Below are positions 45,219 to 64,000 of a stretch of DNA of 64,000 nucleotides, in pieces (position 1 is the stretch's first letter; every line of letters begins with the position of its first letter). The notes under the pieces were generated by a model, which saw only the letters and a program-made list of their open reading frames with translations, ran no database searches and was not told the DNA's origin. The position numbers were made by a program, and so were the translations under genes. This DNA is from Escherichia coli. Lineage in GTDB: Bacteria; Pseudomonadota; Gammaproteobacteria; Enterobacterales; Enterobacteriaceae. The DNA lies in the NCBI RefSeq assembly GCF_003018235.1, contig NZ_CP027437.1, one strand, 5' to 3'.

Positions 45219-45713
45219 ATGGATCGAGAGTTAAAAAATCTGACGCTGAATATCAGTCAACTGGCGGCATTGTCAGGTGTACATCGCCAGACTGCTGCGG
45301 CAAGGCTGCAAAATCTACCCGTTGCAGGGGGGCATGAAAGCAACCTCAAGCTTTATCGGGTGGTTGATATTGTGTCGGCATTTCTGGCATTACCACCGCC
45401 GGTTGCAGAAGGCGAAATGGACGCGCATGAGCGCAAAGCCTGGTATCAGTCTGAACGTGAGCGTCTTAAGTTCGAACAGGAAACGGCACAACTCATTCCG
45501 GCCAGTGATGTCAGACGGGAGTTTGCCATCTGGGCAAAAGCGGTCGTGCAGGTGCTGGAGACATTACCGGATATTCTTGAACGTGACTGCGGTCTGCAGC
45601 CTGCCGCTGTGAGCCGTGTTCAGTCCATTATTGATGATCTGCGCGATCAGATAGCCCTGCGGGTGACTGAAGCAGGTGCGGATGATGAGGAGGAATTACA
45701 GCAGGAGGAGTAA
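45219..45713 (+). CDS. Terminase small subunit (Nu1-like)
   Basis: 164 aa, N-terminal HTH-like region, acidic C-terminus (DDEEELQQEE); stop overlaps large-subunit start (TAATG). Confidence 0.8.
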   Translation: MDRELKNLTLNISQLAALSGVHRQTAAARLQNLPVAGGHESNLKLYRVVDIVSAFLALPPPVAEGEMDAHERKAWYQSERERLKFEQETAQLIPASDVRREFAIWAKAVVQVLETLPDILERDCGLQPAAVSRVQSIIDDLRDQIALRVTEAGADDEEELQQEE

Positions 45714-47815
45714 TGCTGAATCAGGAAACCGCAAAGGCAGCACGAACCGATTCAGGTTATATCCTTCGCGCACCGAGACGAATGCGGGTTGCTGATGCCG
45801 TTGCTCAGTATATGCGGGTGCCCATGGGGGCAGGGAACTCAGTCCCGTGGGATCCGCTGGTGGCACCGTATGTTATTGAGCCTATGAACTGCCTGGCCTC
45901 GCGTGAATACGACGCAGTGATATTTGTTGGCCCGGCACGAACCGGCAAGACTATCGGCCTGATTGACGGCTGGGTGATTTACAACGTGATTTGCGATCCT
46001 GCTGATATGCTGATCATTCAGATGACGGAGGAAAAAGCCCGCGAACACTCCAAAAAACGACTCGCCAGAACGTTTCGCGTCAGCCCGGAAGTGGTCAGTC
46101 GCCTGAGTCCGAACAAAAATGACAACAACGTTTATGACAGAACATTCCTTGCTGGCAACTACCTGAAAATCGGCTGGCCGTCAGTCAATATCATGTCTTC
46201 ATCAGATTATAAATGCGTGGCGCTGACGGATTATGACCGTTTTCCGGAAGATATTGATGGTGAGGGGGATGCCTTCTCTCTTGCCTCAAAACGTACCACC
46301 ACATTTATGTCCAGTGGTATGACGCTGGTGGAGAGTTCCCCCGGCAGGGATGTGAAGGATGTGAAATGGCGACGGACTTCACCGCATGAGGCTCCACCAA
46401 CCACGGGGATCCTGTCGCTCTATAACCGTGGCGATCGCCGTCGCTGGTACTGGCCCTGTCCACACTGTGGTGAGTATTTTCAGCCCTGCGGCGATGTGGT
46501 TGCTGGTTTCCGTGATATTGCCGATCCTGTGCTGGCAAGTGAGGCGGCTTATATTCAGTGTCCTTCCTGTTCAGGACGGATTTTGCCTGAACAAAAACGC
46601 GAGCTGAACGGACGTGGGGTCTGGTTACGGGATGGTGAATCCATCAATGCAGATGGCAGTCGTTATGGTGATCCCCGGCGTTCACGTATTGCGTCATTCT
46701 GGATGGAGGGGCCGGCAGCTGCTTATCAGACACTCTCGCAACTCGTTTACAAACTGCTTACTGCAGAACAGGAATACGAGACAACCGGAAGTGAAGAGAC
46801 ACTCAAGACGGTTATCAATACCGACTGGGGATTACCTTATCTTCCCCGCGCCAGCATGGAGCAACGAAAAAGTGAATTGCTTGAGCAGCGGGCAGAGCCA
46901 GTTCCTTCCCGCAGTGTGCCGGATGGCGTTAATTTCCTTGTGGCGACAGTGGATGTGCAGGCGGGACGTCATCGCCGTTTTGTGGTTCAGGTAACGGGCT
47001 ATGGCAGCCGTGGCGAACGCTGGATTATTGATCGTTACAACATCACGCAGTCATTGCGCGGTGACAGCGACGGGGAGAGCCAGCGAATTGATCCGGCCAG
47101 CTATCCGGAAGACTGGGATGTCCTGCTGACGGATGTTTTTCATAAAAGCTGGCCGCTGGCCTCCGATCCTTCTCAACAAATGCGACTGATGGCAATGGCG
47201 GTGGACTCCGGCGGTGAAGACGGGGTCACTGATAATGCCTATAAATTCTGGCGTCGTTGCCGTCGTGATGGCCTTGGTAAACGTATTTACCTGTTTAAGG
47301 GCGACAGCATCCAGCGCGCAAAACTGATCACCCGTACATTCCCTGATAACACCGGACGAACGGGCCGACGGGCGCAGGCCGCAGGTGATGTACCGCTCTG
47401 GCTTCTTCAGACGGATGCCCTGAAAGACCGGGTGAATAACGCGTTATGGCGTGACTCGCCAGGTCCCGGCTATGTGCATTTCCCTGACTGGCTGGGGAGC
47501 TGGTTTTACGACGAACTGACGTATGAAGAGCGGAGCAGTGACGGGAAATGGAGTAAGCCGGGTCGCGGTGCCAACGAAGCTTTTGACCTGATGGTGTATG
47601 CCGAGGCTCTGGTCATTCTGCATGGATACGAAAAGATCCGCTGGCCGGATGCACCGGAGTGGGCGAGCCGGGAAACCTGGCTGGAGTGTGTCCCGGACAG
47701 TACCGAACCGTCACCCACACCGGAACCGGTATCCACGCCTGTTAAAAAACAAAAACGGAAGAAAACAGTAACTGACGATGTTAACCCCTGGCTGACTTCC
47801 GGAGGATGGTTATGA
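45713..47815 (+). CDS. Terminase large subunit (lambda gpA-like)
   Basis: 700 aa; Walker A-like VGPARTGKT; size and position typical of lambda A. Confidence 0.85.
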   Translation: MLNQETAKAARTDSGYILRAPRRMRVADAVAQYMRVPMGAGNSVPWDPLVAPYVIEPMNCLASREYDAVIFVGPARTGKTIGLIDGWVIYNVICDPADMLIIQMTEEKAREHSKKRLARTFRVSPEVVSRLSPNKNDNNVYDRTFLAGNYLKIGWPSVNIMSSSDYKCVALTDYDRFPEDIDGEGDAFSLASKRTTTFMSSGMTLVESSPGRDVKDVKWRRTSPHEAPPTTGILSLYNRGDRRRWYWPCPHCGEYFQPCGDVVAGFRDIADPVLASEAAYIQCPSCSGRILPEQKRELNGRGVWLRDGESINADGSRYGDPRRSRIASFWMEGPAAAYQTLSQLVYKLLTAEQEYETTGSEETLKTVINTDWGLPYLPRASMEQRKSELLEQRAEPVPSRSVPDGVNFLVATVDVQAGRHRRFVVQVTGYGSRGERWIIDRYNITQSLRGDSDGESQRIDPASYPEDWDVLLTDVFHKSWPLASDPSQQMRLMAMAVDSGGEDGVTDNAYKFWRRCRRDGLGKRIYLFKGDSIQRAKLITRTFPDNTGRTGRRAQAAGDVPLWLLQTDALKDRVNNALWRDSPGPGYVHFPDWLGSWFYDELTYEERSSDGKWSKPGRGANEAFDLMVYAEALVILHGYEKIRWPDAPEWASRETWLECVPDSTEPSPTPEPVSTPVKKQKRKKTVTDDVNPWLTSGGWL

Positions 47816-48024
47816 ATCAGAATGATATTGAAGCCATGATTCAGCGTTATACGGAAGCTGAAATGGCAGTGCTGGACGGAAAATCCGTCACTTTTAATGG
47901 TCAGCAGATGACCATGGAAAACTTATCTGAGATCCGGCAGGGGCGGCAGGAGTGGGAGCGCCGCCTTGCGGCTCTGATTACACGACGACGGGGGCATCCC
48001 GGGTACCGGCTGGCGAGGTTCTGA
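47812..48024 (+). CDS. Head-tail joining protein (gpW-like)
   Basis: 70 aa from ATG 47812 after RBS GGAGG; overlaps terminase stop; stop overlaps portal start (TGATG). Confidence 0.6.
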   Translation: MNQNDIEAMIQRYTEAEMAVLDGKSVTFNGQQMTMENLSEIRQGRQEWERRLAALITRRRGHPGYRLARF

Positions 48025-63553: not shown

Positions 63554-63578
63554 GCACCAGAAATGGTGCTTTTTTTTT
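63554..63578 (+). terminator. Rho-independent terminator after J
   Basis: gcacca-gaaa-tggtgc followed by ttttttttt. Confidence 0.75.
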
Positions 63579-63599
63579 GCAGAAAAGCGAGAGGTAATT

Positions 63600-64000
63600 A
63601 TGCGTAAACTTTATGCCGCCATTTTGTCCGCAGCCATTTGTCTGGCCGTATCCGGTGCGCCTGCATGGGCATCTGAACATCAGTCCACGCTGAGCGCGGG
63701 GTATCTTCATGCCTCGACGAACGTTCCCGGCAGCGATGATCTTAACGGGATTAACGTGAAATACCGTTATGAGTTTACGGACACACTGGGGCTGGTGACG
63801 TCATTCAGCTATGCAGGAGACAAGAATCGCCAGCTTACCCGTTACAGCGATACCCGCTGGCATGAAGATTCCGTTCGTAACCGCTGGTTCAGCGTGATGG
63901 CGGGGCCGTCTGTGCGCGTGAATGAATGGTTCAGCGCGTATGCGATGGCGGGTGTGGCTTACAGCCGTGTGTCGACTTTCTCCGGGGATTATCTCCGCGT
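63600..64000 (+). CDS. lom: Lom/Ail-family outer membrane protein, 5' part (gene continues beyond window end)
   Basis: [59 protein letters not shown]... signal peptide plus beta-barrel strands; RBS GAGAGG; position after J as in lambda. Confidence 0.75.

Follow-up and report, generated by a model that had tools for sequence, protein, structure and literature searches.

The 64,000 bp of the Escherichia coli contig NZ_CP027437.1 analyzed here (hereafter the window) carry a lambdoid prophage at the Qin attachment site of the chromosome, adjoining rspB, and positions 45219–63533 of the + strand hold its virion genes from the small terminase subunit to the tail fiber protein J. We consider it very likely that this region is the virion module of a Qin-site lambdoid prophage of the mEp460_ev081/HannyBb/Tritos type, which was disabled by a deletion of approximately 3.75 kb associated with the insertion sequence (IS) IS100. 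The phage type, the prophage family and the site are known ones, and the disabling mechanism is common. A preliminary description of the region had left the choice between a recently immobilized phage and a defective prophage that still makes particles, perhaps as a transducing agent or in a tailocin-like manner. The results favored the former, as the deletion junction is found in no other complete genome, the open reading frames (ORFs) are intact and the recent substitutions look relaxed. They spoke against the latter, given the private junction, the unconstrained-looking substitutions and the removal of the early promoters directed toward the late antiterminator Q.

IS100 in place of the immunity and replication region

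The insertion lies between the left arm of the prophage and the genes leading to Q:

30847–32800 (+): IS100 (IS21 family), 1,954 bp, replacing the immunity/replication region

Alignment with intact relatives showed that IS100 stands in for about 3.75 kb (9848–13593 in locus L002; 29099–32877 in the isolated phage HannyBb). In the relatives, the deleted segment carries two small ORFs, ydfA, a 135-amino-acid (aa) DicA-like repressor, a Cro/DicC-like gene, ydaT, an O-like initiator and DUF977. None of these eight immunity/replication genes gave a tblastn match anywhere in the window, which bears out the earlier remark that immunity genes are missing. Both divergent early promoters are predicted to have been removed as well, necessarily, with the deleted segment. 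Most of the prophage is collinear with HannyBb, a phage of 45.3 kb, and there is one large gap (window 30854–32801 versus HannyBb 29099–32877); in addition, about 45067–45811, around the small terminase gene, is unaligned, and similarity stops inside J at 63154. Common to both are the integrase and the early, Q and lysis regions of Qin type; of the early region, 85% is shared, with a nucleotide identity of 98.4%.

The two junction sequences are CGGTCGAATTAAA/TGTCACGAACGG and CGTCGTTGACA/ATTATTAATCCCGAC, the slash marking the boundary. IS100 has imperfect terminal inverted repeats and is not flanked by a target-site duplication (GAATTAAA before the left boundary, ATTATTAA after the right one), a configuration that fits an IS-adjacent deletion or recombination between two IS copies. 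Its istA gene contains a W271* nonsense mutation (TGG>TGA at 31745) and istB is intact; this copy is probably non-autonomous and marks an adjacent deletion.

The right IS100 junction was found in 0 of 5,426 complete E. coli genomes. For the left junction there was one apparent match among the complete genomes, in strain YJ6, which turned out to be unrelated: YJ6 contains a separate IS100 inside an IS2 end and has kept its immunity region, so that it was rejected as a sharer of the junction. At locus L005 (7397–10700), IS100 and IS2 are inserted beside dicF. Sister genomes sharing the deletion were also sought through exact-protein look-ups. The truncated IstA returned only unrelated contigs or contig-end fragments, and the portal variant just short Logan contigs ending at rrrQ. 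This portal variant is also present in the read sets SRR15713652, SRR29299487 and SRR21461730. The exonuclease and YdfU variants were too widespread, the places shown having kept the immunity region or lost it through other IS events; the region is present on all ten contigs that encode exactly this exonuclease variant.

Other lineages (L031, L036–L038) have lost the immunity region through IS3/IS66-linked deletions, and S19-651, the closest relative of the virion module, has an IS3 within tail gene M (L009, 26749–28008). Erosion of the locus by IS elements has evidently occurred repeatedly, by different routes in different strains. Among the same-locus decay stages compared, K-12 Qin is the most reduced.

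The consequences depend on the genes that normally link early transcription to lysis and packaging:

36270–37022 (+): late antiterminator Q (ydfT/quuQ type), 250 aa, intact, 99.6% identical to a relative; no recognizable early promoter remains ahead of it
40620–42175 (+): lysis cassette with holin essD, ydfR, lysozyme rrrQ and spanin rzpQ, all intact

An IS100-linked deletion would have eliminated both early promoters, and with them the rightward early transcript that normally leads to Q, along with the genes for the repressor, the Cro/DicC-like regulator, YdaT, the O-like initiator and DUF977. Since the early promoters, repressor and replication genes are gone, the element would no longer replicate, hold immunity or answer the antirepressor Rem. 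Q itself lies 3.5 kb downstream of IS100, past a strong terminator-like hairpin after hokD (34461–34478, +), and further + strand terminator-like hairpins occur between Q and the terminase genes (37130–37148, 40148–40167 and 43622–43643). From the lost early transcript together with these terminators, we infer that the late operon is silent. Constitutive expression of Q would also fire the intact lysis cassette and would hence be counter-selected. Loss of DicA may have been tolerated because dicB and dicF lost their promoter together with the repressor. A sigma-70 promoter scan of 32700–45300 was uninformative (27 sites versus 28.8 expected).

A published study (PMC10448788) treats the related mEp460_ev081 as functional and temperate; it describes a phage with dicB, dicF, dicAC and rem, in which Rem acts as the antirepressor of DicA. 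In the window, dicB and DicF (30280–30691) persist without their promoter (dicBp) and without the repressor DicA, and rem (34609–34857 region) is intact although its target is deleted.

Integrity and type of the virion module

The module comprises 18 complete virion ORFs (45219–63533, +), all on one strand and tightly packed, with zero stops and zero frameshifts. The start and length of each of the 18 equal those of the RefSeq-annotated homologues in Z1323HEC0355, a relative with 99.2% identity, as determined by projected annotation. Against the viable phage mEp460, 17 of the 18 products align end to end without gaps at 95.5–100% amino-acid identity; J is 89% identical, with gaps confined to its C-terminus. 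Product lengths equal those of mEp460 wherever the annotated starts coincide. The gene junctions are coupled, most pairs overlapping by 1–8 nucleotides (nt) or being separated by a gap of about 10 nt, and coding sequence totals 18,273 nt within the 18,315-nt span; such tight coupling of 18 ORFs is far above chance. A 1-nt length difference from Z1323HEC0355 was considered as a possible frameshift and rejected, the indel sitting in the J–lom intergenic hairpin.

The module and the site upstream of it are as follows (percentages are amino-acid identities):

45033–45044 (+): cosN-like GGGCGGGAGCGT (lambda: GGGCGGCGACCT), 175 bp upstream of the small terminase gene, putative cohesive-end site
45219–45713 (+): small terminase subunit (TerS), 164 aa; DUF1441, phrog_141; identical to WP_000373425.1
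45713–47815 (+): large terminase subunit (TerL), 700 aa; GpA_ATPase and GpA_nuclease; 99.6% to mEp460 gp02 at equal length, 25% to lambda A
47812–48024 (+): head-tail adaptor at the lambda W position, 70 aa; phrog_118; 100% to mEp460 gp03
48024–49532 (+): portal protein, 502 aa; Phage_portal_2
49477–51504 (+): ClpP-like prohead protease/scaffold/major capsid fusion, 675 aa; phrog_133, CLP_protease and Phage_capsid_4; identical to WP_001360054.1
51591–51914 (+): head decoration/cement protein, 107 aa; DUF2190, Phage_cement_2, phrog_122
51907–52182 (+): Gifsy-2 family small protein at the lambda FII position, 91 aa; PF13856, phrog_153; 98.9% to mEp460 gp07
52194–52772 (+): tail completion protein Z, 192 aa; phrog_27; 50% to lambda Z
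52769–53170 (+): tail terminator U, 133 aa; phrog_37; 54% to lambda U
53181–53924 (+): major tail tube protein V with a C-terminal immunoglobulin (Big_2) domain, 247 aa; phrog_41; 54% to lambda V
53985–54709 (+): tail assembly chaperones G (53985–54371) and T (ORF 54380–54709); 32% and 37% to lambda G and T
54681–57746 (+): tape measure protein H, 1021 aa; phrog_24; 98.3% to mEp460 gp13 at equal length
57746–58075 (+): minor tail protein M, 109 aa, intact; 56% to lambda M
58085–58783 (+): minor tail protein L, 232 aa; 92% to lambda L
58789–59532 (+): tail tip protein K (C40 peptidase), 247 aa; 87% to lambda K
59430–60077 (+): tail assembly protein I, 215 aa; 78% to lambda I
60138–63533 (+): central tail fiber/host specificity protein J, 1131 aa; C-terminal receptor-binding region divergent
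63600–64000 (+): lom (Ail/Lom outer-membrane protein), partial; phrog_108

All 19 products (the 18 and lom) fall into the expected virion families of PHROGs. Precomputed Pfam assignments of identical proteins gave DUF1441, GpA_ATPase/GpA_nuclease, Phage_portal_2, CLP_protease with Phage_capsid_4, Phage_cement_2 and Gifsy-2 for the head and packaging proteins. For the tail they gave Minor_tail_Z, Phage_tail_U, Phage_TTP, Phage_TAC_2, Phage_tail_T, tape measure protein families, Phage_min_tail and Phage_tail_L. Of lom, 133 of about 199 codons lie inside the window, with no stop so far, and the rest runs past its end. In relatives, a side tail fiber gene, tfa, an invertase and attR come after lom, which here places them beyond base 64000. 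The preliminary description had reported a complete-looking module with uninterrupted, coupled ORFs from the terminase to lom. This stands for the 18 ORFs from TerS to J, in which alignment with Z1323HEC0355 and mEp460 revealed neither a frameshift nor a stop; it extends to every virion gene in the window, with lom seen in part and the distal genes falling beyond the window.

The start of the module is better set about 190 bp earlier, at the cosN-like site. In the database records of phages cdtI and Tritos, base 1 coincides with the same GGGCGGGAGCGT at 45033. Base 1 of the mEp460 record was also considered as a cos end and rejected, because that record just begins at an upstream ATG of the small terminase gene. 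The capsid fusion was taken to start at GTG 49477, as in RefSeq; the start annotated in mEp460 is equivalent to 49546.

The tail assembly chaperone gene T lies in the -1 frame relative to G and is open from 54347, so that the two overlap by 25 nt. The canonical slippery heptamer GGGAAAG (G GGA AAG) is absent at G/T, the sole A-rich candidate being G GAA AAG just ahead of the G stop. A -1 frameshift producing G-T is presumed. The stretch is identical in viable mEp460, so whatever mechanism that phage uses would be kept here.

The module matches mEp460, mEp460_ev081, Ayreon, HannyBb, Tritos, cdtI and several PhiR phages at 95.6–98.6% nucleotide identity over 90–97% of its length; for the mEp460/HannyBb type, 97.6–98.6% over 97% was recorded. 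With mEp460, mEp460_ev081, HannyBb, Tritos and cdtI, all lambdoid siphoviruses with a ClpP-capsid-fusion head and a lambda-type tail, it has gene order and lengths in common. It differs from the mEp460/HannyBb type in that the block of repressor, cro, ydaT, O-like and DUF977 genes is lacking and IS100 is present instead, in the C-terminal part of J, and in a small set of private substitutions (see below).

By sequence comparison, the head belongs to the ClpP-capsid-fusion type of Gifsy-2, cdtI and mEp460. Residues 54–196 of the fusion protein match ClpP structures in the Protein Data Bank (PDB), and ClpP was the only match when the head proteins were searched against the PDB by phmmer. The decoration protein matched no PDB sequence; lambda gpD and phage 21 SHP are present in that database. 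TerL and portal share 22–25% identity with their lambda counterparts. The small terminase and the W-position, protease-capsid, decoration and FII-position proteins gave no BLAST match to lambda (Nu1, W, C, D, E and FII). None of the head and packaging proteins matched bases 1–23000 of HK97 in tblastn at E ≤ 1e-3. The earlier label of an HK97/21-like head was thus abandoned, as HK97 gave zero matches and a ClpP-capsid fusion, accompanied by a Phage_cement_2 decoration protein, replaces separate genes of the C/Nu3/E type. Tailed-phage capsids generally share the HK97 fold, and the comparison here is at the level of sequence. The contrast with phage 21 is drawn from the lambda-like gene set of that phage, not from its sequence.

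The tail genes, in agreement with the earlier assignment, are recognizable as lambda homologues. Z, U, V and M share 50–56% amino-acid identity with lambda, and L, K, I and J 78–92%; G, T and H are lower, so that Z, U, V, G, T, H and M together span 25–56% (tblastn values for H and J are 25% and 90%). Gene order from cos to lom is as in lambda and the cosN-like site resembles that of lambda. Lambda differs in having separate C, Nu3, D and E genes, in contrast to the ClpP-type protease-capsid fusion of the window, and in its canonical heptamer, which is not present here. The boundary between M and L (58075–58085) forms a sharp mosaic joint with lambda, M being 56% and L 92% identical and K, I and J staying at 78–90%. 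The first approximately 1000 aa of J are 93–100% identical to lambda J, and the last approximately 130 aa (63138–63533) share 35–44% with both lambda J and mEp460 J, which suggests that the receptor-binding domain was exchanged.

Substitution pattern and competing explanations

For the concatenated genes from TerS to I, comparison with mEp460 gave a ratio of nonsynonymous to synonymous changes per site (pN/pS) of 0.14, a sign that purifying selection has been strong in the phage population over the long term. Changes specific to the window were defined as positions at which it differs while Z1323HEC0355, S19-651 and mEp460 all agree, with 14.9 kb covered. Nine such private substitutions were found, of which eight are nonsynonymous: R534Q in TerL, F76S in portal, A35V in U, G122A in V, R58I and P103A in T (the latter equivalent to D2E of H in the overlapping frame), and Q231H and A644V in H. 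From site counts, the expected nonsynonymous share is about 31% under continued long-term selection and about 76% under neutrality. At least eight of nine would accordingly be observed with a probability of about 6e-4 if selection had continued and of about 0.3 if the changes were neutral, and the private substitutions fit relaxed constraint. The exact protein variants recur on other contigs in declining number (U, 110; TerL, 94; V, 25; T, 18; H, 13; J, 13; portal, 9), a series that would be compatible with changes having built up step by step while a single clone inherited the prophage vertically. In the explanation we prefer, the structural genes would have stayed intact because the time since immobilization has been too short for stops or frameshifts, rather than because they are in use.

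Several points weigh against this explanation. The count of eight to one is small and rests on three comparators, and very recent bacterial polymorphism is generally enriched in nonsynonymous changes, which makes the test weaker than its P value would imply. The occurrence of the variants on 9–110 other contigs means that the prophage has been inherited clonally for some time. An outward promoter of IS100, which points in the same direction as Q, or an internal promoter is possible. Finally, the completeness of the module is judged up to base 64000, the right end of the prophage lying outside the window.

Three other explanations were weighed against an immobilized phage. The element might be silent alone and dependent on a helper, with a compatible Q activating it in trans, or recombination donating its virion genes, to give a hybrid phage or in situ packaging from cos. 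We regard this as unlikely, even with Q, the lysis cassette, the cos-like site, all virion genes in the window, int and xis intact. The module is very common: 1,791 of the 5,426 complete E. coli genomes contain at least 80% of it, the median number of matching places per genome being two, and homologous partners are therefore likely. In O157 Sakai, defective prophages undergo induction and packaging and also recombine among themselves (Asadulghani et al. 2009, PMC2669165), which also counts in favor of a helper. Those prophages are likewise lambdoid, with a discrete defect and an otherwise intact morphogenesis module, and rescue by other prophages is conceivable; they differ in that here the whole immunity/replication core is lost, not peripheral genes. 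However, the window contains no second lambdoid prophage, rescue of this kind is a generic trait of lambdoid remnants and not specific to this locus, and the mostly nonsynonymous private substitutions show no sign of selection. A special case, in which a compatible Q from a co-resident lambdoid phage triggers rightward packaging from the fixed cos and turns the prophage into a helper-triggered lateral transducer of the ydfJ-side chromosome, appears quite improbable.

The complete module with its coupled ORFs, the retained lysis genes and the clean loss of immunity and replication genes could also be read as domestication, the structural genes having come under host control, after loss of phage regulation and replication, to make tailocin-like or gene-transfer-agent-like particles. 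This seems highly unlikely to us: a tailocin would lack head and packaging genes, whereas terminase, portal, capsid-protease and decoration genes are all intact here; the junction occurs in none of the other complete genomes searched and so gives no sign of long-term retention; of the nine private substitutions, eight change an amino acid; neither a regulator of host type nor a new promoter is evident; and the module is undiverged, at 97–99% identity to free phages. Likewise highly unlikely is an assembly artifact, in which the immunity region of a fully functional prophage collapsed between two IS100 copies. The breakpoint does fall exactly at the IS ends, a classic site of collapse. Against this, the exact proteins are found on a 5.01-Mb contig, suggesting a closed chromosome, none of the eight missing genes is anywhere in the window, and independent IS-linked deletions of the same region in other closed genomes make such a loss biologically plausible.

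Read as an immobilized phage, the locus offers a clean case of early prophage decay, the regulatory and replication core having gone in one IS step with the virion genes still unbroken, and it is intermediate between viable phages of the HannyBb/mEp460 type and the heavily eroded K-12 Qin. It also calls for caution, in that an intact morphogenesis module does not equal an active phage and prophage predictors would probably over-call this element as intact. Incoming lambdoid phages might acquire genes for head, tail and host range from the prophage by recombination. Its importance beyond annotation is small.

Relationship to K-12 Qin and other prophage genes

The left part of the prophage contains the following features:

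25885–30465 (-): left arm with integrase, excisionase, RecE-like exonuclease (823 aa), ydfD and dicB, all intact
30640–30691: DicF small RNA (Rfam)

Beyond the left arm, QueH, hokD/sok, rem, ydfU, ydfT (Q), the csp genes, the holin-lysozyme-spanin cassette and gnsB follow in this order up to the virion module. None of the 5,426 complete RefSeq E. coli genomes exceeds 99.3% identity to the chromosomal backbone at 1–24600, so the source lineage is unrepresented among them.

K-12 Qin is inserted at this same position in the chromosome, flanked by rspB and, in relatives, by ydfJ on the other side. Four blocks are shared with it at 93–99% nucleotide identity, comprising int, ydfE/exo, dicB, dicF, hokD, rem, ydfU, ydfT (Q), the csp genes, the lysis cassette and gnsB; right of 44235, nothing in the window matches K-12 Qin. 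In contrast to the prophage of the window, K-12 Qin keeps dicA and dicC and has lost nearly all virion genes, nohA and stfQ/tfaQ alone remaining of the virion part, much as the preliminary description had stated. The product of K-12 nohA (L008, 7799–8368) and lambda Nu1 share 98% identity across 176 residues, and the DUF1441 small terminase of the window is unrelated, showing no similarity to NohA or Nu1. The notion of an undeleted K-12 Qin was rejected on these grounds. Sequence similarity instead identifies the prophage as a mosaic cousin of K-12 Qin, whose ancestor, given the resemblance of NohA to Nu1, would have possessed another packaging module, one of lambda type.

The slot between DUF977 and hokD (window 32956–33621) holds variable cargo. 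It is occupied by QueH here and, in relatives (L001, L021–L030), by a RelA_SpoT protein, AIPR, a Cap4-nuclease/AAA protein, a KwaB-like protein, a SMEK-domain protein or relBE; the slot looks like a hotspot for defense or moron genes.

Two cspA-type thermoregulator 5' untranslated regions (Rfam RF01766) were observed within the late region, at 39490–39913 and 42390–42775, upstream of cspB and cspI. Their positions indicate that cold-shock morons are embedded between the Q, lysis and terminase genes.

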